A DNA stretch of 64,000 bases from a virus: positions 1 to 64,000 of IMG/VR virus record IMGVR_UViG_3300043425_000676. The stretch is one strand, 5' to 3'. Positions 23,406 through 64,000 of the stretch are shown here, in pieces. The notes under the pieces are model-generated. The model was not told the DNA's origin. It worked only from the letters and a program-made list of their open reading frames with translations, and searched no databases. The position numbers and the translations under genes are program-made. Numbering within the stretch: position 1 is the stretch's first letter; every line of letters begins with the position of its first letter.

Positions 23406-24377
23406 TTACGACCTTTCGAGCTCTCGATAGAGCCGATCTGCTTCCTCGCGAGGATCTTCGCGTGGAGGCTGAGGTCTTGTCGGGCTTCCACCCTGACGAA
23501 GCTGGCTCTGCCTTGAGACTTTTTTGGTCTGCTGTTTCAAACGTTTCTTGGTGATTTCGTCCGCGAAAACCATGTTGGCTACACGACCAACTAGCTTATC
23601 GTTTAGTTCCGCAGGACGACCGAGGCGCTCAAGACCGATCAATTGCGCTTTGACAGCAACGTGAAGTTCTCTGCGCCGCTCGAGTTCTTCGTCGGATTCA
23701 CTCCCGGTTTTCCCGAAAAGATCGGAAAACCCAAGTTGATCGACGTAGCTGTCGAACTGTTGCTCTTCGGCTTGAGCGTTCACATCAGCAAACCTCGCTT
23801 CGAGCACCGAAAGTCGTGATTCGTAATGATCACGCAATCGAGTAAACTCGTCGACGATCTCATCGTCATAGAGATCCTTGCTAAGCGAAACCTCATACCG
23901 ATTGCTATCCTTTCCGGCAGCATCTTCTTGCTTGGCTTCTTTCTTGCTGAATTGACCTTTCTCGTTTCGAGTCGAGCCTTCGTCGCTGTCAGCCAACGCC
24001 TTGCGTCCAGCCTCGAACGCCTTCTTGTCAAGCAATTTCAAAGCCTTATCCAACTCCTCGCGGCTGGCAAAATCCGACAAGTCAGACTCGTCAATGCCAT
24101 ACGCGGCAACCTCGGCTATCACCTTGTCGTTGACCCACTTGGGGGCACGCGACTCGTCGCCGGAAACCTCGCCTTGATCATCATCATCGGCGGAACTGCT
24201 GGAATTTTCCTCAGCAGGTGTTTTGTTGATCGATGCGGTGTCAGTGATGATTTCCGCATTCGACTTGCGATCACCCATACGCTCTCTTGCCACCTCTTCA
24301 GTGACAGTGTTCGCGTATTCCTTGATTTCATCGCTCGTCATGCCTTCGTTCAATTCGACAGTCTCACTCATCCCCAT
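23406..24377 (-). CDS. Capsid scaffolding protein
   Basis: Acidic, helical, RNEKGQFSK motif; directly upstream of the capsid gene. Confidence 0.65.
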   Translation of the reverse strand: MGMSETVELNEGMTSDEIKEYANTVTEEVARERMGDRKSNAEIITDTASINKTPAEENSSSSADDDDQGEVSGDESRAPKWVNDKVIAEVAAYGIDESDLSDFASREELDKALKLLDKKAFEAGRKALADSDEGSTRNEKGQFSKKEAKQEDAAGKDSNRYEVSLSKDLYDDEIVDEFTRLRDHYESRLSVLEARFADVNAQAEEQQFDSYVDQLGFSDLFGKTGSESDEELERRRELHVAVKAQLIGLERLGRPAELNDKLVGRVANMVFADEITKKRLKQQTKKVSRQSQLRQGGSPTRPQPPREDPREEADRLYRELERS

Positions 24378-38206: not shown

Positions 38207-39577
38207 CTATTCAAACTGAAGCATATCGCTGCTTTTGCCGACTGCCGCATCGATTCGCGCACGAGCAAGCTCGATGTATTCGGCTTCGCGTTCAATTCCG
38301 ACGAACCGAAAACCTTCAAGAATAGCTGCCTTGCCTGTGGATCCTGAGCCGGTGAACGGATCGAGAACAAGTCCGTTTGGCGGCGTGACAAGTCGGCAAA
38401 GGTAACGCATCAGGTCGGTCGGCTTGACCGTGGGGTGGACGTTCTTGCGATTCGTGACAAATCTGCTAGTTACGTCATTTCCTGTATCCCACTCTGCGTT
38501 TTCGGGATTGCGCCTGCCGGACATAGACGACGATGCTTTCGAGTTAAAAGCATCCAAGCCTTCATCTCGGTCTTTCTTGCTTGCCTTCGCGCAATAGAAG
38601 AATCTGGCTGCGCTGCCGGAATCGCCTTCATGGAATCTTGGTGTGCCAAGCGTATTTGCCGCGCTGCCATAGATTTTGTTTTCCGTTCTTGGTTGGCCCG
38701 TAAGGCTTCCGCTTGTCGTCTCAGGAAACAACGCCAGCACCTCATCACTTCCATCGTGGATGAAGTTTGCAGGGAAACGGCCCAATTGCTCAGCCTTAGC
38801 AACCGCTTCATTGCCGCGAGCCTTGCAAGCCTCGATCGCTTCGCTGTCGTGTTTCCAAGGCCTGTCCCACCCCTCTGTGGTTGTGCTGATCCTGCCGCCG
38901 CCTAGCTTGTCCCCGTTCGCCTCCACCCTACACCCATCGATATTCAACCCGCCCGTTCCGTGGGCTAGCACATTCGCGGCGACTGTTGTGGGAAAAGGCT
39001 TACGAGCCAATATGATTGGCTCGTAAGCTGGTTTGAGTGCAGTTCCCCAACCTTGCCATTGTGTAGCTGCTTCGGTTGTCGGGATTGTTGTGTAAGCGTT
39101 CCTGCCGGATTCATCACCCCAAGTGCCACCACCGTCTCGTTTACCATCTTCAAGGCGTAGTAGGCGATCACCCCCTCGTTTGAGTGGGCCGACCTGCCGT
39201 TCCGCCCCAGCGGCCTTGTCAATCGCCTTGCTCACATCCAGCGATTTCGGAAAACCCGAGCCATATACCCACATGAGGCAGTCTCTAATCTCCCAACCAG
39301 CATCCTCAATGGCGCAGGCGAGTCGGTGGTACGTCCTCGTACCACCGAACGCCAGAAGATGCGCGCCCGGCTTTGCGACCCGCAAAGCCGCTTCCCAAAA
39401 CGGCATCCCAGGTACGCCGTGATCCCACTGTTTGCCCATAAAGGCCAACCCATAGGGCGGGTCGGTCACGATTGCGTCAACCGAACAGTCCGCAAAAGTT
39501 TTGAGTACGTCTAGGCAATCGCCATGGTGCAATGTGTAGCAATTCATCAAAATGTCCCGTGTAATTGCGCTACTCAA
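38207..39577 (-). CDS. DNA methyltransferase, beta class (N6-A/N4-C)
   Basis: VTDPPY, HPTVKP, LDPFTGSGSTG. Confidence 0.92.
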   Translation of the reverse strand: MSSAITRDILMNCYTLHHGDCLDVLKTFADCSVDAIVTDPPYGLAFMGKQWDHGVPGMPFWEAALRVAKPGAHLLAFGGTRTYHRLACAIEDAGWEIRDCLMWVYGSGFPKSLDVSKAIDKAAGAERQVGPLKRGGDRLLRLEDGKRDGGGTWGDESGRNAYTTIPTTEAATQWQGWGTALKPAYEPIILARKPFPTTVAANVLAHGTGGLNIDGCRVEANGDKLGGGRISTTTEGWDRPWKHDSEAIEACKARGNEAVAKAEQLGRFPANFIHDGSDEVLALFPETTSGSLTGQPRTENKIYGSAANTLGTPRFHEGDSGSAARFFYCAKASKKDRDEGLDAFNSKASSSMSGRRNPENAEWDTGNDVTSRFVTNRKNVHPTVKPTDLMRYLCRLVTPPNGLVLDPFTGSGSTGKAAILEGFRFVGIEREAEYIELARARIDAAVGKSSDMLQFE

Positions 39578-40742
39578 AAAGAACGTTTTGTTTCAATTTA
39601 TCAGCTTTTTGTACCGCCGAATCAATTCGATCGACAGCCAGCTTGATGTACTCTGGATTCAACTCAATGCCGACGTATTTTCTGCCATTCAAGATTGAAA
39701 CCTCGCCCGTGGTTCCGCTTCCGTTAAACGGATCGAGAATAACACCACCTTTGCGGGAGCCAGCAAGGACGCAAGGCTCAATTAGCGCAGGAGGAAATGT
39801 GGCAAAGTGAGCGCCTTTGTACGGTTTTGTGGTGACAGTCCAAACGGAGCGTTTGTTTCTGCCTTTTTCTAGGTCTACCGTCATGTCCCCAAAGTCGTTG
39901 TCGTAATTATGACCCTGCATACTTTCTTTGCTTCCTCCGCCGTTTTGAGCTCTTTTCCATCGGTATTTAGCTCGCTCGTGCGTTGCTTTGCTGCATGGCT
40001 CTTTGATCGCCTCATTGTCGAAGTAGTACCTTGCCGACTTGCTCAGCAAAAAAACGTACTCGTGAGATTTGGTACAGCGATCGGTGACGCTTTCAGGCAT
40101 TGGGTTGGGTTTGTGCCAGATGATGTCTTGGCGTAGATACCAACCATCGGCTTGCAAGGCAAAAGCAACGCGCCAAGGGATGCCAATGAGGTCTTTGGTT
40201 TTTAGCCCAACAGGAGTGCCGATCCGAGGAACGCTATTCTGAGCCTCGGGGTTGTTTGCGCCAACACCAGGGTTTGTGGATTGCTGGCGATCCGCTTTTG
40301 TGCCAGTGGCATAACTATCCCCAAGATTCAGCCACAGCGTCCCGTCGTCTCTAAGCACCCTCCGGACTTCACGAAACACCGAAACCAATTTAGCTACATA
40401 GGCATCCGGTGTCGGCTCTAAACCAATTTGACTATCAACCCTGATAGCACCGCACTTGCCGCACTTATCCTTGTACGGAATCCACAAAGCGTCTTTGTCC
40501 AGTCTGCCCTCAGAAGTTCGACTCCCACCATCGCAAGCGTTTGCAGCCTCAGCAAGATTGCGCCGTTGACGAATCTCTTTTTCTCGATGATCGCAACCAG
40601 GGTCGCCACCCTCCCACTTTGCCGTCCCGTAATCGCGCAAGCCGAAATACGGAGGCGACGTTACGCAACAATCAACCGCCCCTTGCTCCATCGATCGAAG
40701 CACAGACAAACAATCACCGCAATGCAATGTGTAAGGTTTCAT
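39570..40742 (-). CDS. DNA methyltransferase, beta class (likely N4-cytosine)
   Basis: VTSPPY, WHKPNPMPESVTDR, HFATFP, LDPFNGSGTTG. Confidence 0.92.
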   Translation of the reverse strand: MKPYTLHCGDCLSVLRSMEQGAVDCCVTSPPYFGLRDYGTAKWEGGDPGCDHREKEIRQRRNLAEAANACDGGSRTSEGRLDKDALWIPYKDKCGKCGAIRVDSQIGLEPTPDAYVAKLVSVFREVRRVLRDDGTLWLNLGDSYATGTKADRQQSTNPGVGANNPEAQNSVPRIGTPVGLKTKDLIGIPWRVAFALQADGWYLRQDIIWHKPNPMPESVTDRCTKSHEYVFLLSKSARYYFDNEAIKEPCSKATHERAKYRWKRAQNGGGSKESMQGHNYDNDFGDMTVDLEKGRNKRSVWTVTTKPYKGAHFATFPPALIEPCVLAGSRKGGVILDPFNGSGTTGEVSILNGRKYVGIELNPEYIKLAVDRIDSAVQKADKLKQNVLFE

Positions 40743-41754: not shown

Positions 41755-42079
41755 CGTTCGCTCGTTTCTGTGTCTGGTCAGCGCACAAGGATCCCGGGGT
41801 AACCGCTGGTTATTTATCGACGCCGCAACCGAGTCTCCCGACTCCCGAACAACACCATCCAGTGTAGCCCCTCGCGTCTAGCCAGCAGTGTAGGCGTCAG
41901 CCTGCTCACTGGCGGATTGGTCTAGCTCCGGCTAGTCCACTCGGCAACGTCTCGGCCTGTGCTTCCGCCTTGGGCGCTCGGTGACGCTGCATACCGATCA
42001 ATCTGCCCACCACCTTACCGACCGATCTGGCCACCGTCAAGAAATTCCAAAATATTTTGCTATTTGGGGTTGATTCTAC

Positions 42080-42108
42080 TTGTCGATATGCTCTCCATGG
42101 AGTAGAGT
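42080..42108 (+). promoter_or_regulatory. Putative sigma70-like early promoter
   Basis: TTGTCG-17 nt-TAGAGT at the strand-divergence point, followed by hairpin GGGGC-ATCGT-GCCCC near the expected start site. Confidence 0.45.
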
Positions 42109-42170
42109 ACCCATGGGGGCATCGTGCCCCGCAGTAGTGAGACACTGTTTTTTCTAGGAGATTTCTGATT

Positions 42171-42602
42171 ATGGCGAATTTTGATTCCGATCCGCGTGAT
42201 TTTGCTCTGGAAATGGTCGAAAACGAGGTAGTTTCGGCAGACCATTTATTGCTTTGCTGCCTCAAGTACATGAGCGCCGACGAACTTTCACCGCGTTTTG
42301 CTTGCGACGAGCCAGACCTTTGCATTGATTGCGGCGGTTCTCACATTGAGGAGGGCACCTGCCTGGGTTGCCAGCTCGCCGAGTGGCTAGACACCTTCGA
42401 TGATTCAGAATACGACGTTTCCGCCATGCGTGACGATGTTTCTACCAACAATCTCGAAGTGGGAGACGATGACGCGGCGGAAAAATACCGCCATGAAAAC
42501 ATCGTTCGCGAGTCGATTGTCAATGGCAACTACACCCAAGCCAAAGAGCAGTGCCAACGCTTCGGGCTCGACTACGAGGCGATCCTAAGCGAATGCAACT
42601 AG
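42171..42602 (+). CDS. Very acidic early protein with Cys knuckle
   Basis: SD AGGAGA; D/E-rich; CIDCGG...CLGC. Confidence 0.65.
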   Translation: MANFDSDPRDFALEMVENEVVSADHLLLCCLKYMSADELSPRFACDEPDLCIDCGGSHIEEGTCLGCQLAEWLDTFDDSEYDVSAMRDDVSTNNLEVGDDDAAEKYRHENIVRESIVNGNYTQAKEQCQRFGLDYEAILSECN

Positions 42603-42649
42603 ACTCGGGGGGGTTAGGCCGAGTGCGGAGGGGTTCGCCCCTCGTCCCC
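42603..42649 (+). ncRNA. Pistol-ribozyme-like core lacking P1 (copy 1)
   Basis: ACTCGG-G-GGGG-TTAGG-CCGAGT-GCG-GAGGGG-TTCG-CCCCTC-GT-CCCC. Confidence 0.7.
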
Positions 42650-42693
42650 GCTGTCGCGTGACAGCAAGCAACAACGAAACAGGAGAAACGACG

Positions 42694-42912
42694 ATGCCAA
42701 AGACCATCGACCAAACCAATCCAATCGAGCGCAATATCCGCGAAGCAATCGCCAGGATGAAGCGATCTAAGACTACTGGCGCCTCCATGGATTGCCTTTT
42801 CTTGAACACTCGTACTGCTGGCGTGACCGTGCCGGTCGGCATGTACCGTGCCGAGTTTGAGAAGCTCGCCCATCGCGTGGCAAGGGATCTGGCGTTCGAT
42901 CTTTACTGCTAG
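42694..42912 (+). CDS. Hypothetical early protein
   Basis: SD CAGGAGA; MPKTIDQ... Confidence 0.6.
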   Translation: MPKTIDQTNPIERNIREAIARMKRSKTTGASMDCLFLNTRTAGVTVPVGMYRAEFEKLAHRVARDLAFDLYC

Positions 42913-42953
42913 CAGGGGTTAGGGCTAGTGCGGCGCCTTCGGGCGCGTCCCCT
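42908..42953 (+). ncRNA. Pistol-ribozyme-like core lacking P1 (copy 2)
   Basis: GCTAGC-A-GGGG-TTAGG-GCTAGT-GCG-GCGCC-TTCG-GGCGC-GT-CCCC-T; stems covary with copy 1. Confidence 0.7.
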
Positions 42954-43019
42954 CGTCGACACTGTGTCGGCGGATCACCGCAGGCGTGAGACCCTGCCAA
43001 GCTTTCAGGAGAATTGACC

Positions 43020-43478
43020 GTGAAGACTGTATTTGAGACAAGATTTGCCAAAGTCGGCGAGACAGAGGAACACTACGGCGGAGTACGTTCAGCCCGAGTC
43101 GGCGGAGTCGATGACGCGAAGGAATTTGCGAGAAAGCACCTCGTACCGTATTTTGCCGACAAATGCGATGCAGAGGAATTTTTGATTGTCACCCTAGATA
43201 CCCAACACCGCCCAATTCGGATTGTCCGCGTTACTCGCGGGACGGTGAACGCAAGCCTAGTCCACCCCCGAGAAGTGTTCCGTCCAGCTATTGCCGACTG
43301 TGCGGCTGCGATGTTTCTGGTTCACAATCACCCATCTGGCGATCCGACCCCTAGTCAAGAAGATCGAGCGGTTACACGGCGTCTCAAGGACGCTGCCGCG
43401 ATCATTGGTATATCGATCCTAGATCACCTGATCGTCGGAGACACCATCGTCTCACTGGCTGAATACGGCTGGTTTTAG
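43020..43478 (+). CDS. RadC-like JAB/MPN domain protein
   Basis: E...GTVNASLVHPREVFR...HNHPSGDPTPSQED...LDHLIVG. Confidence 0.92.
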   Translation: MKTVFETRFAKVGETEEHYGGVRSARVGGVDDAKEFARKHLVPYFADKCDAEEFLIVTLDTQHRPIRIVRVTRGTVNASLVHPREVFRPAIADCAAAMFLVHNHPSGDPTPSQEDRAVTRRLKDAAAIIGISILDHLIVGDTIVSLAEYGWF

Positions 43479-43489
43479 TCCCTGTTCTC

Positions 43490-43581
43490 CCGCAAGTCTC
43501 GGCACACTTGCGGCAAAGTCTCACGAGTGCCGACGCGGTTGGCCGATGCGATATTCGGCTGTTTTTTCCACCAACACGAGA
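43490..43581 (+). ncRNA. Full-topology pistol-like ribozyme with extended P3
   Basis: P1 CCGCAAGT/ACTTGCGG; pseudoknot TCGGCA/TGCCGA; CAAAG linker; P2 TCTC/GAGA; ACGAG loop; GCG; P3 GTTGG/CCAAC. Confidence 0.55.
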
Positions 43582-43597
43582 ACAGGAGACTCGAAAA

Positions 43598-44221
43598 ATG
43601 CTCAAAGTTACACCAGCAGGCGATAACGCCAAGCTAGGCTCAGGAGTCGGAACAACCTACCGCCCAGTGGGAATTACATGCCCAAACACCTGCCCGCTAT
43701 TGGGTAACGGTTGCTACGCCCAACGCGGAAACGTCGCAATCCACGCGGCTAGATCGAAGAACGATAATCACGATTTGATGAAGCTCGCGGCAAACACGCT
43801 GGTTCGCCACCTAGTCTCGGGCGATTGGCTCAAGGCTACCAAGAACGGGCGCAAGATCCTTGACCGCGTATTTGTTCGCGCTGTTATCGCCCTACACCAA
43901 AAGTGCCCCTGGCTCACGGGATGGGGATACACTCACGCGGCGACCGCATGGCAGGCAGCAGGCATCACGCCGGCAGACCTGCCCAGTAATTTACACATCC
44001 TCGCATCATGCGACACGGCAGAGCAGAAAGCCACCCACAACGCCAACGGATGGAGGACAGCCCGAGTTATCGACGAACTGGCAGATAGGCAACCCGACGA
44101 GTTTGTGTGCCCAGTGGATGCAGCCAAGCGGAAGGGCATTCCAGCGGATCGCAGAACCAATTGCGCAAGATGCAAGGCTTGTTTTGCCACCGATCGTAAC
44201 ATTGCTTTTTTGAAGTTTTAA
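43598..44221 (+). CDS. Cys-rich phage protein (Gp88-like, radical-SAM-related)
   Basis: TCPNTCPLLGNGCYA, RHLVSGD, WGYTH, VCP...NCARCKAC. Confidence 0.65.
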   Translation: MLKVTPAGDNAKLGSGVGTTYRPVGITCPNTCPLLGNGCYAQRGNVAIHAARSKNDNHDLMKLAANTLVRHLVSGDWLKATKNGRKILDRVFVRAVIALHQKCPWLTGWGYTHAATAWQAAGITPADLPSNLHILASCDTAEQKATHNANGWRTARVIDELADRQPDEFVCPVDAAKRKGIPADRRTNCARCKACFATDRNIAFLKF

Positions 44222-44238
44222 CCAAGGAGATTCTGACA

Positions 44239-44658
44239 ATGGAAATTAACCTAGAACAAAGACTGTACGTCATTCCATCCGGCAAGGGCTACTCGTGCTT
44301 GGGGTTTGACGTATGCGAACAGCGCAGAGTGTCTTATATGCAATGGCTTGGACTGCCCGTACAACCCGTAGAAATTGGCACGCATCACGCTTATGCGGAA
44401 TACCAACGCGCCTTGGAACTGGTGCGAATACGGTGTAACTCTCCCGGTGTTAGATGCACAGTCGAATTGGTACCTGAGTTAGTGCGGTACGAACGTCGTC
44501 GAGTCGAGGTTACTTACCCCGATGGCACGAAGACCCGCTTTATTGTTGGGGTGTCGACTGGATTTATTCCAGTTCATCTTGAAATCAAGACGCGACGATC
44601 TACCGGCGGAAGTCAAGCGTACTTCCCGCCTGGATCAACAGTACGGCTGGTGGGTTAA
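44239..44658 (+). CDS. Hypothetical early protein
   Basis: SD AAGGAG; RFIVGVSTGFIPVHLEIKTRRSTGG motif. Confidence 0.65.
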   Translation: MEINLEQRLYVIPSGKGYSCLGFDVCEQRRVSYMQWLGLPVQPVEIGTHHAYAEYQRALELVRIRCNSPGVRCTVELVPELVRYERRRVEVTYPDGTKTRFIVGVSTGFIPVHLEIKTRRSTGGSQAYFPPGSTVRLVG

Positions 44659-44663
44659 AGCAA

Positions 44664-44722
44664 GACGTTTCGCGCACGAGACCACTGGCTTGCTAGTGGT
44701 CGACTGCCTGCAGCGTCGCAGG
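44664..44722 (+). ncRNA. Unclassified pseudoknot motif (copy A)
   Basis: GACGTT...stem...CCTGC-AGCGTC-GCAGG; matches 45218-45274 with covariation. Confidence 0.6.
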
Positions 44723-44753
44723 GTATTCAAGGCTTTTAATGGAGATTTGTGTT

Positions 44754-44933
44754 ATGAAGGTGACAATCGAAAACAATGAGTTGGTTATTTGCATACCCGT
44801 TGAGAACCCTCCACGACCAAGTGCAAGCGGTAAGACCCTCATCGTAGCCACGAGCAGCGGAAATCAAACCACGGACGCAATTGTCAATGGTCAATCTGTG
44901 GTGGTCGGACTGAACGCATACATTAAGAGGTAA
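44754..44933 (+). CDS. Small beta protein (SxSGKTLIVAT family), paralogue 1
   Basis: 59 aa; 45/59 identical to 47701-47880. Confidence 0.75.
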   Translation: MKVTIENNELVICIPVENPPRPSASGKTLIVATSSGNQTTDAIVNGQSVVVGLNAYIKR

Positions 44934-44935
44934 GC

Positions 44936-45217
44936 ATGAAATACTTCATTGAGCGAACTATTGGTGCTCATTCCGACACACTCGAAAAGCTCTGGGAAGG
45001 TAATGATTTACCTTTGTTCAGCCGCAATGGACATCCGTATTGCTTCAGTTGCTACAGAGAAGCTCAAAGAGTGCTCTGGAGACTTCAAGCACGATACCCC
45101 GTAACGATCGATACTCCTAGATCACCATCTGTGCCAATTGATTATTCCTTGGAAAGCATAGACACATCGGCAGCTCAAGAGTACAGACCGCAACAACACT
45201 TAGGCATGTTTGTTTAA
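44936..45217 (+). CDS. Hypothetical protein
   Basis: 93 aa ORF. Confidence 0.5.
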   Translation: MKYFIERTIGAHSDTLEKLWEGNDLPLFSRNGHPYCFSCYREAQRVLWRLQARYPVTIDTPRSPSVPIDYSLESIDTSAAQEYRPQQHLGMFV

Positions 45218-45274
45218 GACGTTTTGCGCCTGAGGGGGCTCGCCCGAACCCCTAACGGCCTGCAACGTCGCAGG
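45218..45274 (+). ncRNA. Unclassified pseudoknot motif (copy B)
   Basis: GACGTT...stem...CCTGC-AACGTC-GCAGG, starting right after the TAA stop. Confidence 0.6.
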
Positions 45275-45301
45275 AACACAACACAACAGGAGAACAGAAC
45301 G

Positions 45302-45706
45302 ATGGCAGATCGATTTTACGGCACAGTTTATTTGGGTGGGAAGCTAACTCAAGAGCAGTTCAAGAAGTGCGAGGAATTGCTAGAGGATTGCTTGGAACAC
45401 GGCGACGAGCTAAACGAGGATGGTTCAGCGTCATTTTCCGAATGCACTAGCAGCGACTTCCAAGGCATCGTCGAGTATTGCACATCCAACGGTATCGCCT
45501 TGTCCTTGCATTGGGACGCCAAGTGGGAACAAGAAGCAAACGTGGAATACTGGATGGACGGCGAATACAAGCAGTTTTTCGCGGCTGGTGATGGAGACAT
45601 CGCCATTAGGCTGGCGGAGCTGCAAGAGCACCCCGATATGACCATTGCCGAGTTTATCGCCAAGATGCAGATTCCCGAGTTCCCAACCTTCGAAATTGCT
45701 GACTGA
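45302..45706 (+). CDS. Acidic hypothetical protein
   Basis: SD CAGGAGA; MADRFYG... Confidence 0.65.
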   Translation: MADRFYGTVYLGGKLTQEQFKKCEELLEDCLEHGDELNEDGSASFSECTSSDFQGIVEYCTSNGIALSLHWDAKWEQEANVEYWMDGEYKQFFAAGDGDIAIRLAELQEHPDMTIAEFIAKMQIPEFPTFEIAD

Positions 45707-45806
45707 TGCGCGTCGGCGACTCGAACGCGAGGGGATTGCCCGATCCCTAAGCGCCCGAGCCCCTGGCAGTCAGGATCGGTAGCATCAAACACAGGAGACA
45801 TAAGCT

Positions 45807-46025
45807 ATGTATAAGCCTGGAACGTTTGTTCTTGACGGCGTTTCGTATGACCTAGCCTTTACGCGCCGACGCTACAGCAACACGACATTCACATGGGTAG
45901 CTGTCAAACTCAACGGAGAGTGGGTTGATCTAGGCGATCCATGGCAATGTATTACGCCAAAAAAGGCTGAGATTGAGGCAGGGTTGAGAATTGTTCTGGC
46001 TGCTAATTCAGTAGCCTTGGTTTAG
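45807..46025 (+). CDS. Hypothetical protein
   Basis: SD CAGGAGA; 72 aa. Confidence 0.6.
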   Translation: MYKPGTFVLDGVSYDLAFTRRRYSNTTFTWVAVKLNGEWVDLGDPWQCITPKKAEIEAGLRIVLAANSVALV

Positions 46026-46058
46026 TTTTTTTACACTTGCAAACAGGAGATTTGCGCA

Positions 46059-46487
46059 ATGTCTGAACAGTCCATCACACTGAAAACCGTCACGGCAACG
46101 CCGTTTAAGGATTGCAACTCGATGCTTACGCCTCGTCTGCAATTGGTTGTGCGGTACACGAAAGGCGGAACCAGCATTATGACGGGAGCCGAGTTTGTCC
46201 GAGGGTACGAGATCAGTATCCAGTACGACCGTCTTAGCGACGACGGATTTAGGCAGTTCTTGATTGATGGCAGAGGTAATCCGACCGAAACACTGGAGCA
46301 AGCCTCAAGATTCTCCGCCAAAGCGCTCGATAGGCTGGCAGGCGAGATCCGCAGCGGGAAGCATAACGCAACCATTGCGCACCTTTACGCACTGGCAAGA
46401 GCACGAAGACCAGAACACAACTGGCCGGAAGCAATCTTGCCGCTTGAACCCGAGAAGAAGCCCTGCACGGCTCTGATCGTCGTTTAA
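46059..46487 (+). CDS. Hypothetical protein
   Basis: SD CAGGAGA; 142 aa. Confidence 0.6.
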   Translation: MSEQSITLKTVTATPFKDCNSMLTPRLQLVVRYTKGGTSIMTGAEFVRGYEISIQYDRLSDDGFRQFLIDGRGNPTETLEQASRFSAKALDRLAGEIRSGKHNATIAHLYALARARRPEHNWPEAILPLEPEKKPCTALIVV

Positions 46488-46512
46488 CACGGTAACAACA
46501 GGAGACTTTGAC

Positions 46513-46753
46513 GATGAAAATTGCAATTTATTGGAGTCACGTGAGAAATCGCTGGTACGAACGCATTGACGGCGTTTCGACACCTTTGCGGCACTCAATC
46601 TACTTGCCAACCAATCCAACCTACAAGCAGGTTGAAGACGCTCTGATCGAGCTGGCAAGCTACTACGGGGAGGATTTGCAACCGGGAGATGTCGATATCG
46701 ACTTGTCCGACGATGCGTCGGCAACTTGGGAAAGGACGGTGGTTTGTGCTTAG
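46513..46753 (+). CDS. Hypothetical protein
   Basis: SD CAGGAGA before MKIAIYW. Confidence 0.55.
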
Positions 46754-46946
46754 TTCGAGCGATCTTGAAGGATGGAGAGCAGAAGTAACCAGCACACTCA
46801 AAGCGGCTGAGCATTACGCTGAAAAAGCGATGGACGCCAAAGAGTGGGATAACGTTGTCTTTATGCTTCGCCGAGCGCATGACAAAGCGCTAAGAATCCA
46901 AGACAGGTTGGAAATGTCGGCAAAAACTGCCAATGACACCAAATAG
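46746..46946 (+). CDS. Small helical protein
   Basis: GTG start overlapping the upstream gene end. Confidence 0.45.
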   Translation: MLSSSDLEGWRAEVTSTLKAAEHYAEKAMDAKEWDNVVFMLRRAHDKALRIQDRLEMSAKTANDTK

Positions 46947-46973
46947 TTTTTTTATTACAAGGAGGGAAAGACC

Positions 46974-47120
46974 ATGGCAAAATGGATGCTGCTGATTATC
47001 GTTGGCTTGTGCGGTTGTGCAGGTCAACGAACCAGGGTTACATTGACGCGGGTTCACGGTGAGCCTGCAATTAGTATTGAATTTGAAGACGCAAAGGAGA
47101 TTTGCAATGCGAATAGGTAG
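46974..47120 (+). CDS. Small putative lipoprotein (48 aa)
   Basis: SD AAGGAGG; MAKWMLLIIVGLCG-C lipobox-like signal. Confidence 0.55.
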   Translation: MAKWMLLIIVGLCGCAGQRTRVTLTRVHGEPAISIEFEDAKEICNANR

Positions 47121-47643
47121 CAGAGTCGCTATTACGCGAATGCGAGAAGATGGCACATGGGAGAGGTATACGGGTTGCAAGAAAAGACCCGAGGGAACCG
47201 TAATCGGTTTGGATATCGACGATTGCGACGGGCACATACGATATGATTTCGCCACAATCCGCTGGGACGACGGCAGGGTGGAAAGGATTAGGACAGAAGG
47301 CGAAGACGAGATCGGAACGTGGGAACTTGAAGATGTCACGCCGGAACTGTACGCCAACTTGTATCTTTGGGATAAAGCCTACGGAGGATCAGAGGAGGGT
47401 GGCTGGTGGTACGACGTTTACACGCCTGCTGATGGTGATTGGAACGATGAACCGCCAAAACACGGCTTGTTCGCTAATTCGACCGAAGCAGAAAACGCCG
47501 CCAAGGCATTGCGAGAATGGTGCGACAGCGAAAACCGCTCGCGTCGATCACCGAACTCCATGGCATCCGAAGGGCACTTCATTGTTAGGGTGGAAGCTTG
47601 GCCAGCAGAGCCTCACCCAACCCACAAGCCCCACTACTGCTAA
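47107..47643 (+). CDS. Hypothetical protein (YGGSEEGGWWY motif)
   Basis: SD AAGGAG; AYGGxEEGGWWY...P..KPHYC motif typical of phage early proteins. Confidence 0.65.
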   Translation: MRIGSRVAITRMREDGTWERYTGCKKRPEGTVIGLDIDDCDGHIRYDFATIRWDDGRVERIRTEGEDEIGTWELEDVTPELYANLYLWDKAYGGSEEGGWWYDVYTPADGDWNDEPPKHGLFANSTEAENAAKALREWCDSENRSRRSPNSMASEGHFIVRVEAWPAEPHPTHKPHYC

Positions 47644-47700
47644 TTCACGCTGACACGGTGTCGGCAATGTTTGTTGTTTGTTTTTACAGGAGATTTGATT

Positions 47701-47880
47701 GTGAAAGTTACGATTGAAAACGGCGAATTGGTTATCCGCATTCCCGTGGAAAACCCACCACGACTAAGCAGCAGCGGTAAAACGCTAATTGTGGCTACCA
47801 GCAGTGGCAATAAAGCAACGGCGGCGACGGTCGACGGCAAGCCCGTTATTGTCGGACTCAATGCCTACATCGCAAAGTAG
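47701..47880 (+). CDS. Small beta protein (SxSGKTLIVAT family), paralogue 2
   Basis: GTG start with SD CAGGAG; paralogue of 44754-44933. Confidence 0.75.
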   Translation: MKVTIENGELVIRIPVENPPRLSSSGKTLIVATSSGNKATAATVDGKPVIVGLNAYIAK

Positions 47881-47955
47881 GCACGGTAAAATGATCTCAA
47901 GCCGTGTGTCAATTGTGGCACGCGGCTTTTTTGGCATCAACACATTAGGGCGACC

Positions 47956-48411
47956 ATGGGAACCAAAACGAAAAACGTAATCTATGTCCGCTGGCTCATT
48001 CGCAAGGACATGCCCGCAATCAACGAGATAAACATTGAAGCGAGCTACCAACTGCTTGAAGAAGACATAACGAAGATGCTTCGCACGCGAAACGTAGCTG
48101 GCATGGTTGTCGAGCTGGACGGGGTTGTGGCTGGCTACATGATCTACGCACTGGAGAAGGGCTCGATTGACCTTTACCATCTTGTGGTTGATCCAGTGTT
48201 CCACGGGCAAGGCTTGGGCACTGCGCTCATTGAGAAGCTGAAAACCAAGCTAGGTACGCATCAAGGCAGAACAGCTATCTACACGACTGTCAGCGAATAC
48301 GACGTACAATCTCAGGTGTTCTTTCGTTCCGTCAAGTTCTTTTGCGTCGACACTATTCGCGGCTGGGACGAGAACGGGGACGGATACCTATTTGAGTTTT
48401 TGGACATTTAA
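47956..48411 (+). CDS. GNAT acetyltransferase (RimI-like)
   Basis: VRWLIRKDMPAI, VAGYMIY, VDPVFHGQGLGTALI acetyl-CoA motif. Confidence 0.85.
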   Translation: MGTKTKNVIYVRWLIRKDMPAINEINIEASYQLLEEDITKMLRTRNVAGMVVELDGVVAGYMIYALEKGSIDLYHLVVDPVFHGQGLGTALIEKLKTKLGTHQGRTAIYTTVSEYDVQSQVFFRSVKFFCVDTIRGWDENGDGYLFEFLDI

Positions 48412-58414: not shown

Positions 58415-61400
58415 TTATTTTTGATTCAATTTTTGCGTAATTTGACGCAATCTTTCGACCAAAGCGTCCTTCATCACAAGTGCCTGACCCTTGCGCTCGT
58501 ACAGGGTTTTGTTGTTCCTGCGCCAATATGCCAGCAGTAGCAGCCTTGCCTCTTCTGGCCCGATCTTGCCGTCGATCATGGTCTTAAGTGCCTTGTCTCT
58601 CTCGGCAACAGCTTTGGCGTAGGTCGTATCGTCCTGGAAGTCCTTGCGTTTTGGATTGGCTGAAGCAGAGTAGACCAGCGATTGTTTGCGTTGCTCTCGG
58701 CGTTGCTTGAATCGCTCAAGTTCATCCTTGGTCAAGAAGTCCTTGTAGCCTGGATCCTTCGAGTCCCATTCCATCGCTTCGAGATCCTTCTCGATCAGCT
58801 TTTTGCGTTCCTCTGCGTTGGCGTTCTTGTACTTGGTCTTAGGCCCATAGGTTCCACCACTCATCCCGAGAATGTTTAGCATGGCGATCGCTGGGCCTTC
58901 TGGCACACCACGAGCCATCAGCGTTTCAACGACTTCCCGTCCAGCCAGAGGGATGAACAGTCCCGTGGTAGCCGTGGCTACCGTTGCTTTGTTGCCAACA
59001 ACATCTTCTCCAGCAATGATGTTGATGCCAGCGGCGGGGATCGGTGCGAGTTTCTTGCGGATAAAGTTGGCTGTCAGATCGAACGTACTATCCTGACCGT
59101 ACTTCTTCTTCTCTCCCCGAATGTCAATAATTTCGCCTTCCATCGTCTTTTTCTGCCCAAGTCCAACTTGAGAAAGGAATGTGACGATTTGACCAAAGCC
59201 GGACAGTGGATCGATTCGCGTCTCTCCAATCTTGAGTTTCATGAAGTCCGTCGATCGCGGATCCAGTTCGACGGTTGGCGATTCCTCATCATCGTCGTCG
59301 TACAGCAATCCTCCGAGTGCCACGGCGGTTGCTAAGAATCCGGCAACACCAAGGGCGTGTCGAGCGTATTCCATGGCGATGAGCCGCTTAACCCTGCCGG
59401 AAACCTTGGCATCCTGAAGCATGTAGAACGGCAACCCTAGATATGCGAAGCGAGACGCGAGGTATCTAGGTGCGAACAAGACGGTGCTGAGGTTTGCCGC
59501 GACCTTGTTATAACTCCCGAAGTCCCCTCTACCTGTCGATACGTTGATAAAATTGGCAATCGCCTTGGCTTCGTCCAGCGTCACCTGACCGTTTGCCCCG
59601 AGGGTATCGACGAAATAGGTAAACAGCCGGAACCGCAAGCCGTTGAGGTAGGTCGTGTAAGCCCTGGCGGACATTGCCACGGGTGTCAAAACCGCCTTGC
59701 TGAACTTGTTGATCTTTGTGCCCTTCTTGCCGATGCCGTCCCTTGCCCATCGACCCATGTAGGCTTCTTCTTGGTTCTGGATCCTGCCAGCACTAGCCGT
59801 AACCTCAAGTTTGGCTTGTACCGCAAACGAATAGAGCCGGTGCTTGCTCATCTGTTCGGCGATATTAAACTCTTCCTCTTGGCTGAAGATAGCCCGTCGC
59901 ATTTCCTTTGCAGCCTCTCTGGCAAGCATTGGGTGAGCGAACGTCCCTGGGCCGCCCTGGCGGAACACCGCCGACAAGTCCATGGATGTCATAATCGCTC
60001 TTGCCAGGAATGAAGTCTCCCGAGCCCAGTCGAAGACCCTCTCTTTGGGGCTCAACTGCGACAATCGCCATTCTGCCGCCAGGCGGAAGAACTCCTCTTT
60101 TATTTCCTCAAGTCGCCTCTTGTGCTTGGTTATCTCGTCGCTTTCGAGTGGGGCTTTCTTGGGTTTTGCTCCAAAGTAGCCGTGCGCCATGCGATCTTCG
60201 TAATCCGCAATCCTGTTTTTCAGGTTGGCGATATAAGCTACCTCTGCTCGCTCTTGAGGGCTCATCTTGGGGTTCTGTTGTGCCTTAATCGCGTCTCTCT
60301 GAGCACGCAACGATTCGAGCTCTGCTTGCTTGGCTTTGAGTTCTGCGCTCGTTACGGGCTCAGCACGACCTCTAGGGGAGAAATCTCCGGTGCGGAGTTG
60401 TTCCGTAACCCTTTCGATCTCCCGATCGGTAGCCCTGAGAGCTGCTGCAAGCCGTTGCTCCTTGGTCGCTCCCTGCCGAGGAAACATCTCGCGGTAGTCT
60501 TTGGTGACTTCCGCTAGGATTCGCTTTTGCTCAGCCAAATCCTTGTCTTTGCTTGCCAAATCGACCTGCGTCTTGGTGATCGGCTTGCCTTCAGCCATAG
60601 CCTTCCGCAAATCCCTGATGCGGTTTGCCGTTGCCCGCATTGCGGCACCAATTGATGTCTTCAGGAGTCCCTGTTCATCCTCGGTGTAAAGGTTACTATT
60701 GCGCTTCATCTCGTTGACTTGTCGCACTAACGCTCGCTCATCGTCGGACATTTCGCGACGCTCGACACCCGTTGCCTTGGGTCGAATACCGGCTTCCAAA
60801 TCCTTGATCTTCGCCATTTGGAGCAACTGACCGTTGATGTCGCGTTGCAATCGCTTGTTTGCGTCTGGAGAAAGCGGGGTAAATTGCCCATATCCGGTCA
60901 GCGCGTCCATTGTCTGCCGCTCGGTGATCTCCGGGTCGATCTCCTGGAGCGATCTCCAGACGGCATCTAGGACGACTTCAACGCGATCTTCTTGATCCGC
61001 CGTGACGATTCCGCTTTCAATAATCGCCATCTCGATCTCACGGGCGATACGGGTAAGCCCCTCAACATCCCCAGGGCTGACCATCGGAATCGGGATTTCA
61101 CCTTGCGCCTTGATCTTCTCCCATGCCGTCGCAAACGCAGCCTGAGCCTGAACAGGCAGTTCGCCACCTATCTCTTTGCGCAAATTGGCTAGCAGTTCAC
61201 CGTAGGAGAATACGCCAGCTTCGACGTATGCCATGACGACACTCTCGGCTTCCTCAGCCATTCGTTCGTCTTCGGTCTGCATCAGCGTGTCAGAGCCACC
61301 CTTGGGCTTGAAGATGCTTGAGAACTTCTTGACGAAGCTCTGTACCGCCGTGGCGGCTTTTTGCCGTGGCTCGCTCTTGGTCTTGGTCTTGGGTGCTTTC

Positions 61401-64000
61401 TTCAAGTCATCGTCGACCACTTGTCGCACACCGTCTTGCCGTTGAAGGTCGGCAATCACCTGCTCGGCTTTCGCCAAGTCGCCCTGAACCTTCGCCAGTT
61501 CCGCAGCCAACTCAGCGATTTGCCTTGTCTGCTCTGCGCTAAGTCTCTCACCGCCGTTGGCAGCCCTGCCCCGACGCAACAACGCAGCACGAGAGAAATC
61601 CGATCGCAAGGTGATTTTCCTGGCTCCAAATGCCCTTGCTTGCAGGGTTCCGATCTTTTTGTCGACCTTCTCCATTTCCTCCATGGCATCCACTATCAGG
61701 TCAACTTCCCTGAGTGCCTTGGCTGCGGCAACGCTGTCTTTTCGGTCTTTGGCTGCAAACAATCGATCTTCAGCGGCTTCGCGAGCGTTTTCCAGCCCCC
61801 GGTAGTGCATTTGCAAAACAGCTACTTCAATCTGGTCTGGGGATCTCAGTTTGTCGTCCAGTTCTTTAACGAGTCGATCGCCGAGGGTAGGATCCTGTCT
61901 GAGCCTGTGCCCAGCTTCCTCCAGCCACTCATCCATTGTCTCGGATTCTGCATCCACCAGCCCTGGCGACCCTCGAAGCAGAGCCATGTAGTTCGCCACT
62001 TCGTTTTGGATGCTCGTCACTGGATTTGCAGGACGCAAGACGGGCTCGCCCCTGGAAACAGGCTCGCCGCCCTTGCCGCCACGCTGGTCGGCTGGCAACC
62101 CTCGCTGAACCAACTTGTCGAACAGATCGCGGATTTCCTTGGGGAGAGGCGTTCCGGTGATCTCTTGCACACCGCTGTAGATTTCTCGCATCCAACGGGA
62201 GATCTTTTGGAACAGCGAATCCAGGACGCTATTCGGGGAGTCACCCTCGTACCAATACTGCTCCCACATCTTGGCGGCTTTTTCTTCCGCCTTCACATCC
62301 CACTTCGTTACCCATTTGCCATTCACAAAGCTTCCAGCACCGCTCGCCTTCTCTAACGCTTCGATTTCCTCATCGGTGATGTCGGCACGCTTTTCGGCTG
62401 GCACGCTCTTGTCGAGCAGGAACAGTCGCATCGGATGGAAGAACTCGTGGATGAACGTCGAGAAGTCAGCCTTGTTTGTGGCTCCGATCAGTGCTCGATG
62501 TGCGCTGATGAACTTCGTCCAGCCCTTGACGCTGCCGCCTTGCTGTTGGTTCTGCATCAAGATGTTCGGGTTGTTCGGGTCGAACATGCCGCGATTGCCG
62601 GTGGCGGACTTGATTTGGGTTGGGCGTAACGCCACCCACACATCCTTCCCTACGCCTCCAACACCTTTGAATCGCTCGTCTTGAACTCCGTCAAAGCCAG
62701 CCTCTTCAAGCTTCTCAATGACAGCATTATTAAATTCCACCCTGTCTTCAATGCCTAAACTTACTACTTCTCTTCGGGCAGCAGCCAGATCCTTCAAGCT
62801 AGCTGGGTTTTTGACACTCAAGTAGAACGGTCTTGTTTTACCAAGAGCTAGTGCGCCAGATTCTTCAGAAGTAAACCAAAAACCCGGAGATACACTGTAA
62901 TTTGCGTCGAATACATCAAACTCTTTATCTGTTCCGTGGTAAACAACCAGAGGTTTTCCGTCCTTGTCCACCACCTTGCTATCGCCAAACCATCGCACAA
63001 AATTCTGCCATGTCGGCTTGCCGTTTGGAGCGATCTTTTCGCCCCACTTGTCTCGAGCGTATGACACGACTGCAGGGCGATAGTCGCTCTCGTTGAACTT
63101 GTATCCTGACGGTTGATCGAAATCTTCTTGTGCCATCGCCTGCCCAGGCACCGGCGTACCATACGGAGCAAACCCGATCTCATTGCGACCGAATGCCGTG
63201 ATGTCTTCGAGCGTAATTCCAGCCTCGATCTGATCATCGGACAGCACCCTACCGAACGCCCTCTTTGCCATCGTGACAACTTGGTCGCGTGTGATGCCCG
63301 AGACTGCTGCCGCCTGCTGCACACCATCCATGCCTGCGACTTCTGCCGCTAAGCGAAGGAAACGGCTCACCTGCAACGTGCGCTCGCGTCCAATGGTCTT
63401 GACCGAGTAGGCAACGAAGTCACGTAGATTGGTGATTCCAGCGTCCTGAGCGGCGATGGAGAGGTTCAACGCCTCCGACCACATATTCTCGTTTACGTCT
63501 GGTGCGGTCTGGTAAAGCGGGGGCGGTAGATTGCGCAGGTTGTCTGAAAGCTCGGCTTGATTCTTTTCGTCATTAGCAGCTTTAGCTTCAACGTATATAG
63601 GTTCTCCTTCCTCGTTCAGAACCTTGCTAGCCTCAATCGCTACAGATTCGCCGTTTTCTTCGTACAAAACGTGCGTGTCAGATCTATAGCCAGTAACAGC
63701 ATGTTCCTCGATGTCATAAGAAACATTTTCTTGCGCAGGCTCACCTGTCATTTGCTCCTTAAACATCTCTGCTTGCATGTCATCAACAGCCTGCCTACCT
63801 GAAGCACGCTTGCGCTTTCGAATATAAATTGAAGTACCGACTGGGGCTATATTCCTAAACCAAGACGGAGAGCCCTCTGGGTTTGCCTCGATCTCTGCGA
63901 CAAGCGACTTGAGTTTCTTCTGCTTTATATCAAGCTGCTCCTGTCGCACAAACGGAAGCTTTGCAGACTCATTAGCCGACTTAACAAACGCCTGCTTTTT
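58415..64000 (-). CDS. C-terminal part of a giant polyvalent ejection protein containing an ADP-ribosyltransferase-like (ART-PolyVal) domain and a HExxH motif
   Basis: Frame open to the window end; NFVRWFGDSKVVDKDGKPLVVYHGT...GFDGV...QIKSATGNRGMFDP; ADFSTFIHEFFH; long helical C-terminus. Confidence 0.85.
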   Translation of the reverse strand, partial: KKQAFVKSANESAKLPFVRQEQLDIKQKKLKSLVAEIEANPEGSPSWFRNIAPVGTSIYIRKRKRASGRQAVDDMQAEMFKEQMTGEPAQENVSYDIEEHAVTGYRSDTHVLYEENGESVAIEASKVLNEEGEPIYVEAKAANDEKNQAELSDNLRNLPPPLYQTAPDVNENMWSEALNLSIAAQDAGITNLRDFVAYSVKTIGRERTLQVSRFLRLAAEVAGMDGVQQAAAVSGITRDQVVTMAKRAFGRVLSDDQIEAGITLEDITAFGRNEIGFAPYGTPVPGQAMAQEDFDQPSGYKFNESDYRPAVVSYARDKWGEKIAPNGKPTWQNFVRWFGDSKVVDKDGKPLVVYHGTDKEFDVFDANYSVSPGFWFTSEESGALALGKTRPFYLSVKNPASLKDLAAARREVVSLGIEDRVEFNNAVIEKLEEAGFDGVQDERFKGVGGVGKDVWVALRPTQIKSATGNRGMFDPNNPNILMQNQQQGGSVKGWTKFISAHRALIGATNKADFSTFIHEFFHPMRLFLLDKSVPAEKRADITDEEIEALEKASGAGSFVNGKWVTKWDVKAEEKAAKMWEQYWYEGDSPNSVLDSLFQKISRWMREIYSGVQEITGTPLPKEIRDLFDKLVQRGLPADQRGGKGGEPVSRGEPVLRPANPVTSIQNEVANYMALLRGSPGLVDAESETMDEWLEEAGHRLRQDPTLGDRLVKELDDKLRSPDQIEVAVLQMHYRGLENAREAAEDRLFAAKDRKDSVAAAKALREVDLIVDAMEEMEKVDKKIGTLQARAFGARKITLRSDFSRAALLRRGRAANGGERLSAEQTRQIAELAAELAKVQGDLAKAEQVIADLQRQDGVRQVVDDDLKKAPKTKTKSEPRQKAATAVQSFVKKFSSIFKPKGGSDTLMQTEDERMAEEAESVVMAYVEAGVFSYGELLANLRKEIGGELPVQAQAAFATAWEKIKAQGEIPIPMVSPGDVEGLTRIAREIEMAIIESGIVTADQEDRVEVVLDAVWRSLQEIDPEITERQTMDALTGYGQFTPLSPDANKRLQRDINGQLLQMAKIKDLEAGIRPKATGVERREMSDDERALVRQVNEMKRNSNLYTEDEQGLLKTSIGAAMRATANRIRDLRKAMAEGKPITKTQVDLASKDKDLAEQKRILAEVTKDYREMFPRQGATKEQRLAAALRATDREIERVTEQLRTGDFSPRGRAEPVTSAELKAKQAELESLRAQRDAIKAQQNPKMSPQERAEVAYIANLKNRIADYEDRMAHGYFGAKPKKAPLESDEITKHKRRLEEIKEEFFRLAAEWRLSQLSPKERVFDWARETSFLARAIMTSMDLSAVFRQGGPGTFAHPMLAREAAKEMRRAIFSQEEEFNIAEQMSKHRLYSFAVQAKLEVTASAGRIQNQEEAYMGRWARDGIGKKGTKINKFSKAVLTPVAMSARAYTTYLNGLRFRLFTYFVDTLGANGQVTLDEAKAIANFINVSTGRGDFGSYNKVAANLSTVLFAPRYLASRFAYLGLPFYMLQDAKVSGRVKRLIAMEYARHALGVAGFLATAVALGGLLYDDDDEESPTVELDPRSTDFMKLKIGETRIDPLSGFGQIVTFLSQVGLGQKKTMEGEIIDIRGEKKKYGQDSTFDLTANFIRKKLAPIPAAGINIIAGEDVVGNKATVATATTGLFIPLAGREVVETLMARGVPEGPAIAMLNILGMSGGTYGPKTKYKNANAEERKKLIEKDLEAMEWDSKDPGYKDFLTKDELERFKQRREQRKQSLVYSASANPKRKDFQDDTTYAKAVAERDKALKTMIDGKIGPEEARLLLLAYWRRNNKTLYERKGQALVMKDALVERLRQITQKLNQK

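Follow-up and report, generated by a model that had tools for sequence, protein, structure and literature searches.

The subject of this analysis is a rightward operon (42171-47880, + strand) of a complete uncultivated phage with a genome of 72,061 bp (source record in IMG/VR, completeness according to CheckV); the window, i.e. the whole stretch of DNA analyzed, comprises bases 1-64000 of this record. The longer intergenic gaps of the operon carry small conserved RNA structures, which begin where the upstream gene ends, at its stop codon. Comparison of these structures in related phages leads us to favour, by a small measure, the reading that they are modular RNA cassettes placed at stop codons, and that two of them, 42603-42649 and 42908-42952, represent a P1-less variant of the pistol ribozyme, which would cut the operon message. 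Self-cleavage of these two copies in itself seems to us rather probable. The features of the two pistol-like copies and of the hairpins following them are listed below; R1 is a covariance model of the pistol-like family, with helix P2 left out of the model.

42603-42649 (+): pistol-like copy 1 (R1, 70.2 bits; Rfam Pistol, 20.3 bits; covariation), with pseudoknot 42603-08/42619-24, P2 42610-13/42646-49 and P3 42628-33/42638-43
G42644/U42645 (+): predicted scissile bond of copy 1
42650-42665 (+): hairpin directly after P2 of copy 1 (minimum-energy fold), predicted 5' end of the downstream fragment
42908-42952 (+): pistol-like copy 2 (R1, 63.5 bits; covariation), with pseudoknot 42908-13/42924-29, P2 42915-18/42949-52 and P3 42933-37/42942-46
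G42947/U42948 (+): predicted scissile bond of copy 2
42955-42971 (+): hairpin with CACNGUG-type apex and one G-U pair (from folding)

The two copies belong to one family, and the next R1 match in the window has an E-value no better than 3.8 with filters off. The search started from an 18-nt pattern common to both copies, which occurs twice in the phage and retrieved 35 IMG/VR stretches; 26 pattern matches, 23 of them distinct, have the full architecture. All five complete relatives of 61-73 kb contain 2-5 copies recognized by R1, in each genome in one operon cluster. A scan of metagenomes added 22 loci, and a scan of genomes added one contig of a metagenome-assembled genome and one probable chance match. 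The family alignment consists of 50 distinct copies out of 63 R1 matches.

In these 50 copies the 6-bp pseudoknot, the 4-bp P2 and the 6-bp P3 are paired in 796 of 796 pair cells, and compensatory changes are seen in 13 of the 16 pairs (pseudoknot 5/6, P2 3/4, P3 5/6). The covariation score is 0.581, compared with 0.149 for shuffled data (0/500 reach the observed value) and at most 0.118 for slid partners. In particular, the sixth pseudoknot pair changes from R-U to G-C in all four copies with C in this position, and is G-U in 21 cells. P2 is otherwise invariant GGGG/CCCC, with single compensatory changes in L032:8308-8356, L032:3822-3875, L060:8573-8623 and L032:6062-6112; these four variants, three from L032 and one from L060, would be useful natural mutants. 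UUAGG, GCGG and the GU junction are invariant in 50/50 copies. The GU junction lay outside the first search pattern, yet it is present in 26/26 structured matches.

A permissive Rfam scan of 41900-48100 yielded a single match, Pistol (RF02679), that covers 42610-42649 with 20.3 bits and runs without gaps along model positions 24-68 of 68. The similarity to the classical pistol comprises P2 and P3 (both 100% paired), a pseudoknot of 6 bp, one side of which is contributed by the strand linking P2 to P3 (columns 3-8 with 19-24, all cells paired), and association with phage genes. Moreover, the P2-P3 stretch is equal in length to the Rfam consensus and has the same succession of UUA-purine-G, a 6-nt pseudoknot strand and GCG; UUAGG and GCG occur in 50/50 copies, gap-free on the model, an invariance partly forced by the search pattern. 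The G of UUA-purine-G pairs with the C of GCG, and P3 is followed by exactly GU and then by the 3' strand of P2, so that the junction predicted to hold the scissile bond has two bases in 50/50 copies. The positions kept are those named as catalytic or structural in the accounts of the classical ribozyme (PMC6154101, PMC6101554, PMC4604425): purine 32, the G33-C41 pair, the triple of G40 with G33-C41, G42 and the fixed 2-nt junction.

The differences from the classical pistol concern mainly the 5' part. The phage elements have neither P1 nor the A-rich J1/2 linker; instead, a linear 5' pseudoknot strand is separated from P2 by a single base in 50/50 copies, and therefore no 3' strand of P1 is possible, the sequence upstream being coding and unconserved. 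As the AAA of J1/2 is described as docking into the minor groove of P1 (PMC6101554), the joint loss of P1 and AAA is coherent. The first P3 pair is G-C in the phage elements and U-G in the model consensus, and the score stays under the Rfam cut-off. As judged from sequence, the elements thus have a pistol core but fail three membership features: the P1 hairpin, the AAA linker and the Rfam score. The label 'pistol-like' given to 42603 and 42908 by a first-pass annotation of this DNA is apt in this sense, the pistol core being kept with no indels relative to the Rfam model. A pistol without P1 was not found in the literature searched; supplementary alignments of pistol and hammerhead papers, which were outside that search, might contain examples.

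The placement of the family relative to genes is highly regular. The stop codon of an upstream ORF is found near 45/50 copies, and in 40 of these 45 the distance of its end from the first pseudoknot base is -2 to +9. The stop codon of gene 2 (42910-42912) is within the pseudoknot strand of copy 2, and therefore the terminating ribosome must melt the fold. All copies are on the coding strand, between the stop codon and a Shine-Dalgarno site. In 37/50 copies a hairpin follows at a distance of at most 6 nt, its apex often being of the CACNGUG type; G-U pairs in 16 of these 37 hairpins point to a role at the RNA level. The last longer gap of the operon has a hairpin of the same type without a pistol-like element, so that the hairpin previously claimed at 47649 is indeed there.

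47649-47665 (+): stand-alone hairpin of the type found after pistol-like elements

The operon contains a second family of pseudoknots, described by its own covariance model, R2.

44664-44722 (+): second family, copy 1 (R2, 75.9 bits), 44664-69 pairing with hairpin loop 44712-17
45218-45274 (+): second family, copy 2 (R2, 72.9 bits), 45218-23 pairing with loop 45264-69
45707-45780 (+): divergent relative of the second family (fold z +0.34)

The elements at 44664 and 45218, earlier noticed as a repeated pseudoknot, are two copies of this one family. In this family a 5' strand pairs with the six loop bases of a hairpin on the 3' side; a 3-bp stem, an internal loop (GAG/RA) and a hairpin that varies complete the layout. 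In ten copies 94.2% of the cells are paired, with compensatory changes in 12/19 pairs, three of them in the pseudoknot, and a covariation score of 0.515 versus 0.167. R2 has 33 matches, 28 of them distinct, and 20 matches fall in the 22 loci fetched solely via the pistol-like pattern. A stop codon is near 27/28 copies, at -12 to +1. The 'branched element' reported at 45704 is a weak case: it has a partial R2 match (45726-45753, 12.5 bits, E 0.43), the element after the gene-8 orthologue in L058 reaching 25.4 bits with R2.

None of 4227 Rfam families matches the second family at E <=10 in 41900-48100, and none reaches the gathering score in the relatives. It was also compared by eye with HDV-like ribozymes, with the hammerhead (GA...GA flanks of the variable hairpin) and with a circularly permuted pistol, and each was rejected, as the helix order does not fit and no Rfam match exists. 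Similar to candidate motifs collected from gene neighbourhoods of twister and hammerhead ribozymes, as these are described in PMC6765202 and PMC10085705, the second family is a conserved structure in places of self-cleaving ribozymes, differing from them in that it matches no Rfam family. The second family is found in the same kind of slot and probably fulfils the same function, be it by a new self-cleaving fold or by serving as a processing site; self-cleavage of this family is plausible, but we consider it less likely than not.

In three relatives a full hammerhead core directly follows a stop codon in the same operon: G003 (L062), G004 (L063) and G005 (L064/L005). According to the core criteria given in PMC3088659, these motifs have C3 U4 G5 A6 N7 G8 A9, G12 A13 A14, A15.1-U16.1, H17 and three stems; that of G005 has one extra U after A9. 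All three fold as a three-way junction with the core unpaired. Our own strict hammerhead descriptor matched twice in 1.08 Mb, and in none of three shuffled replicas. As a separate observation, the Rfam hammerhead models have a sensitivity gap for short-stemmed phage hammerheads.

The protein encoded before the hammerheads of G003 and G004 is 57% and 44% identical, respectively, to the G001 protein preceding a pistol-like element, and hence the hammerhead slot is orthologous to a pistol-like slot. The exchange of elements between slots is real and is seen for other genes of the operon too. Orthologues of gene 1 are followed by a pistol-like element in 7/8 informative loci (one of these being a P2-covarying variant, by eye); in L200 it is the second family that follows. 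Orthologues of gene 6 have the second family before them in four loci, a pistol-like element in L202 and neither of the two in one locus. Orthologues of the RadC-like gene are followed by a terminator element, described below, in 13/16 loci, and by a pistol-like element in L203. Thus the architecture that the first-pass annotation suggested looking for in related phages, structured RNAs clustered at stop codons, is present in the operons of the relatives, where type I and type II hammerhead motifs share slots with pistol-like and second-family cassettes.

Clusters of hammerheads in prophages are reported to cut transcripts of ~2 kb in vitro, and processing into single-gene mRNAs has been proposed for them (PMC3088659), which provides a precedent for the transcript cutting suggested in the first-pass annotation. 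As far as they are described there, the prophage clusters likewise consist of several small motifs between genes of one phage transcription unit, with the same proposed role of converting a long transcript into single-gene or operon-length mRNAs. The phage differs in that its main cassette is pistol-derived and accompanied by an unclassified fold, all are tied to the stop codon, and the window has no hammerhead.

Considering all gaps together, the operon has seven intergenic gaps longer than 50 nt, and six of them (42603, 42908, 43479/43490, 44664, 45218 and 47649) open with a conserved structure, either directly at the stop codon or at most ~10 nt from it. The structures, their conservation and their stop-codon placement are real. 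The earlier statement that nearly every such gap begins with a structure therefore stands for these six, the seventh (45707) being weakly supported. The fold z values against shuffles, as listed for the seven gaps, are +0.49, -0.36, -2.64, -0.63, -2.34, +0.34 and -1.60, mostly non-significant; since fold energies mostly match those of shuffles, the case for more than chance rests on the relatives and not on thermodynamics.

The gap after the RadC-like gene contains an element of a third kind, and its features, together with hairpins that it may contact, are as follows.

43479-43567 (+): third family, with anti-Shine-Dalgarno stretch 43479-89 and P1 43490-97/43506-13
43500-05 with 43527-32 (+): pseudoknot of the third family, formed by the loop (by eye)
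43518-24 and 43534-39 (+): conserved GUCUCAC and CGCGGU of the third family
43541-60 (+): terminator hairpin of the third family, followed by a U run (to 43567), a terminator-like site in the scan
42131-42148 (+): leader hairpin with 8-nt loop AGUGAGAC, then a U run and the gene 1 Shine-Dalgarno site
42980-42997 (+): hairpin (loop CGUGAGAC) closely preceding the Shine-Dalgarno site of the RadC-like gene
24357-24372 (-): further hairpin of the NGUGAGAC loop type

Fourteen homologues of the third family were retrieved by a pattern that did not include GUCUCAC. The 8-bp P1 and the loop pseudoknot covary in these homologues (by eye); GUCUCAC, preceded by a linker with AA(A), is conserved in 13/14 and is GUCUCAU in one. 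It is followed by CGCGGU, a hairpin with a conserved loop, and a U run. The G+C-rich hairpin and U run at 43541-43567 have the form of an intrinsic terminator, the U run being seen in 13/14 homologues (by reading). The 11 bases that directly follow the RadC stop codon (43479-43489) are paired in the minimum-energy fold (z -2.64) with ~43578-43590, where the next gene has its Shine-Dalgarno region, and the CUCC stretch after the stop codon is retained in the homologues. A pistol identity of the element at 43490 was considered and rejected: P1, a loop pseudoknot and a linker rich in A are present, but the pistol core and P2 are absent, and neither R1 nor Rfam Pistol matches it. We read 43479-43567 as a terminator-bearing regulatory module, not a ribozyme.

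GUCUCAC at 43518-43524 is the exact complement of the GUGAGAC loops at 42137-42143 and 42986-42992. Hairpins with the conserved 8-nt loop NGUGAGAC and covarying stems number 17 in 214 kb, compared with 0.4 in shuffles; three are in the window and 14 in related loci, and 16/17 are located shortly upstream of a GGAG-type Shine-Dalgarno site. The fetched loci with a third-family element also have GUGAGAC hairpins; G001 and G005 have neither, and G002 has one hairpin and no element. This complementarity suggests a possible RNA-RNA contact between GUCUCAC and GUGAGAC, in cis or in trans.

According to the reading we favour, the operon is a rightward unit of ~15 small genes with a cassette in each longer gap, starting at the upstream stop codon. 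In the pistol-like elements the 5' pseudoknot strand joins P2 via a single base and is not displayed in a P1 loop, with the surroundings of the active site kept. After departure of the terminating ribosome, the pseudoknot would fold and the RNA would cut itself at G42644/U42645 and G42947/U42948. This would leave the upstream message with a compact pseudoknot and a 2',3'-cyclic phosphate at its end, and the downstream message with a 5'-OH at its start, after which there is usually a hairpin, and then a leader rich in A and C and a Shine-Dalgarno site; the 43479-43567 element would act separately, as a pseudoknot with a terminator. Cleavage, its sites and its effect on stability we infer. The earlier interpretation of the operon as a ribozyme-cut transcript is thus borne out in part: it fits the pistol core at 42603 and 42908 and the hammerheads in orthologous slots, and it was wrong for 43490, the other structures matching no known ribozyme. 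In the early mRNA of phage T7, RNase III, a host enzyme, cuts between genes at long double-stranded hairpins. The likeness to T7 would lie in a polycistronic transcript cut between genes, with a structured 3' end on each upstream piece, and the difference in short pseudoknots with a ribozyme core taking the place of long double-stranded hairpins and the host enzyme.

A number of observations weigh against this reading. Both P1 and the J1/2 AAA are missing, and classical pistols with a disrupted P1 are reported to lose activity substantially (PMC4604425). The Pistol gathering cut-off of 34.5 bits is not reached: copy 1 stays at the score given above, copy 2 is unreported at E <=10, and the relatives score at most 32.9 bits (32.9, 29.1), where a chance hairpin takes up the P1 positions of the model. 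Retrieval by a fixed pattern, and then by a model built on it, partly forces the core to be invariant; a relaxed pattern gave no divergent pistol-like copies among the 76 new loci listed, which hold no R1 match. In both pistol-like gaps the single-sequence folding energy is no better than that of shuffles. The hammerheads of the relatives are below the Rfam cut-offs (RF02276, 37 bits; RF00163, 34 bits), the best site, in G005, having 13.9 bits (E 0.12) and the other two being unreported; moreover, the G004 motif has one mismatch in stem I and failed the strict descriptor, and the window itself contains no hammerhead. The earlier label 'pistol-like' for 43490 has to be replaced by the third family. 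Many of the motifs found beside ribozymes failed to cleave when tested, as described in PMC6765202 and PMC10085705. Finally, the labels 'early' and 'host-takeover' are guesses, since RadC-like JAB and DUF7227 products are the only recognizable ones in the operon, and independence from host RNases is purely conjectural.

Part of these observations would be expected if the pistol-like and second-family elements did not cut at all and served for protection of ends, as exonuclease blocks, or as sites for phage or host endoribonucleases or RNA-binding proteins, possibly as descendants of a pistol that is no longer active. This is unlikely, but it accounts for the missing P1 and AAA linker (P1 matters in classical pistols, according to PMC4604425), for the scores under the Rfam cut-off and for the frequent failure of ribozyme-associated motifs to cleave (PMC6765202, PMC10085705), and other cassettes of the gaps, such as the GUGAGAC-loop and CACNGUG hairpins, do look like protein or RNA binding sites. 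It is opposed by the conservation of the pistol active-site bases, the loop length and the 2-nt GU junction in 50/50 copies, none of which a purely structural pseudoknot needs, and by hammerhead motifs in an orthologous slot. The same two facts, the conserved pistol core and the exchange with hammerheads, would go unexplained if the elements were translational devices, where a pseudoknot on the stop codon is melted by the terminating ribosome and couples termination to exposure of the next gene or to re-initiation. Such a role agrees with the stop codon abutting on or lying within the 5' pseudoknot strand in 40/45 cases and, after the RadC-like gene, with the pairing of 43479-43489 with the next Shine-Dalgarno region in the minimum-energy fold and the CUCC kept in homologues; still, the next start is 75-110 nt away and has its own strong Shine-Dalgarno site, and in pistol-like gaps, where this was not tested systematically, the downstream Shine-Dalgarno site showed no conserved pairing. 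We consider it improbable.

The remaining explanations place the elements at the level of transcription or of DNA. Phage HK022 has cis-acting antitermination RNAs of the put type, and elements of this type, or attenuators, might be expected where several structured RNAs are downstream of one promoter and one of them, 43479-43567, ends in a good intrinsic terminator. However, no U run follows the copies of the pistol-like and second families, an arrangement of 2-5 copies per operon, all placed at stop codons, is not what put-like sites would lead one to expect, and no Rfam family of that kind was matched, which makes this explanation very improbable. That the repeats act as DNA, i.e. as operators or as recombination or mobile-element sites, seems hardly credible: the hairpins are near-palindromic with a conserved apex, but the pseudoknot pairings are not palindromic, all copies are on the coding strand between the stop codon and the Shine-Dalgarno site, and G-U pairs occur in the hairpins (16/37) as well as in 21 cells of the sixth pseudoknot pair.

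Pistol has so far been described only with P1 and an A-rich linker, so a natural multi-copy form of ~47 nt without both would redefine the minimal pistol, and would also be a smaller tool for RNA engineering. The role of small ribozymes in bacteria and phages is described as unclear in the literature consulted. In the related phages the occupant of one and the same stop-codon slot varies between hammerhead, pistol-like element and unclassified pseudoknot, and this makes the proposed role, cutting of an operon into separately stabilized mRNAs, directly testable. The second family, represented by 28 distinct copies with strong covariation, came to light through the neighbourhood logic to which pistol, hatchet and twister-sister had earlier been owed, and can therefore be regarded as a well-founded candidate for a new class of ribozymes. 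A bolder proposal, which we put forward as speculative and not the likely outcome, is that these phages have at least three interchangeable self-cleaving 'gene separators' at stop codons, namely the hammerhead, a P1-less mini-pistol and the second family as an undescribed ribozyme class, plus a terminator-bearing regulatory RNA following the RadC-like gene, whose GUCUCAC would pair with GUGAGAC loops before the Shine-Dalgarno sites of several genes within this operon.

The genes and transcription signals of the operon, and other features of the window, are as follows.

42064-42092 (+): promoter-like site TTGGGG, 17-nt spacer, TATGCT (by eye)
42171-42602 (+): gene 1, 143 aa, no known family
42694-42912 (+): gene 2, 72 aa, stop codon 42910-42912
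43020-43478 (+): gene of a RadC-like JAB-domain protein (Pfam PF04002, E 1.3e-40; phrog_10276)
43598-44658 (+): genes 4 (DUF7227) and 5 (phrog_10759, function unknown)
44754-45217 (+): genes 6 (59 aa, 44754-44933) and 7 (93 aa)
45302-45706 (+): gene 8, 134 aa
45807-47643 (+): genes 9-14, with short gaps (own gene caller)
46974-47120 (+): lipoprotein-like ORF, 48 aa, with a signal ending in cysteine (signal by eye)
47701-47880 (+): gene 15, paralogue of gene 6 (paralogy by eye)
47901-47932 (+): intrinsic terminator at the operon end, hairpin then U6 (fold z -3.50)
38207-39577 and 39570-40742 (-): two adjacent DNA methyltransferase genes (phrog_67, E 6e-75 and 2.7e-83)
58415-64000 (-): giant ORF of at least 4548 aa, continuing to 72061 in the full record (L059) and open at the contig end

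All 15 small ORFs in 42171-47880 (own gene caller) have an AGGAG-type Shine-Dalgarno site, exactly as the first-pass annotation had claimed. The single promoter-like site that it named can be recognized by eye at 42064-42092, and the consensus scan reported no sigma-70-like site on the + strand; relatives have clearer, TTGACA-type promoters at comparable places, with the TTGTCGATA stretch in common. No deposited phage similar to 42000-48000 was found by blastn, and no Rfam family matches at gathering score in the whole window. Among the smaller observations, a small ORF of G002 (L061 gap) resembles the 48-aa lipoprotein-like ORF, and the paralogous 59-aa genes 44754-44933 and 47701-47880 are preceded by the second RNA family and by a simple hairpin, respectively.

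The product of the giant ORF is a phage 'polyvalent protein', with helicase domains of the SNF2 family and an ADP-ribosyltransferase domain (ART-PolyVal). Given the 72-kb genome and the giant gene, the CACNGUG hairpins were considered as N4-like DNA hairpin promoters, and this was dropped, the giant protein being a polyvalent protein instead. A 698-aa frame at the other contig end (2-2095, -), also open, may join the giant ORF if the genome is circularly permuted. Both DNA methyltransferase genes are transcribed away from the operon.

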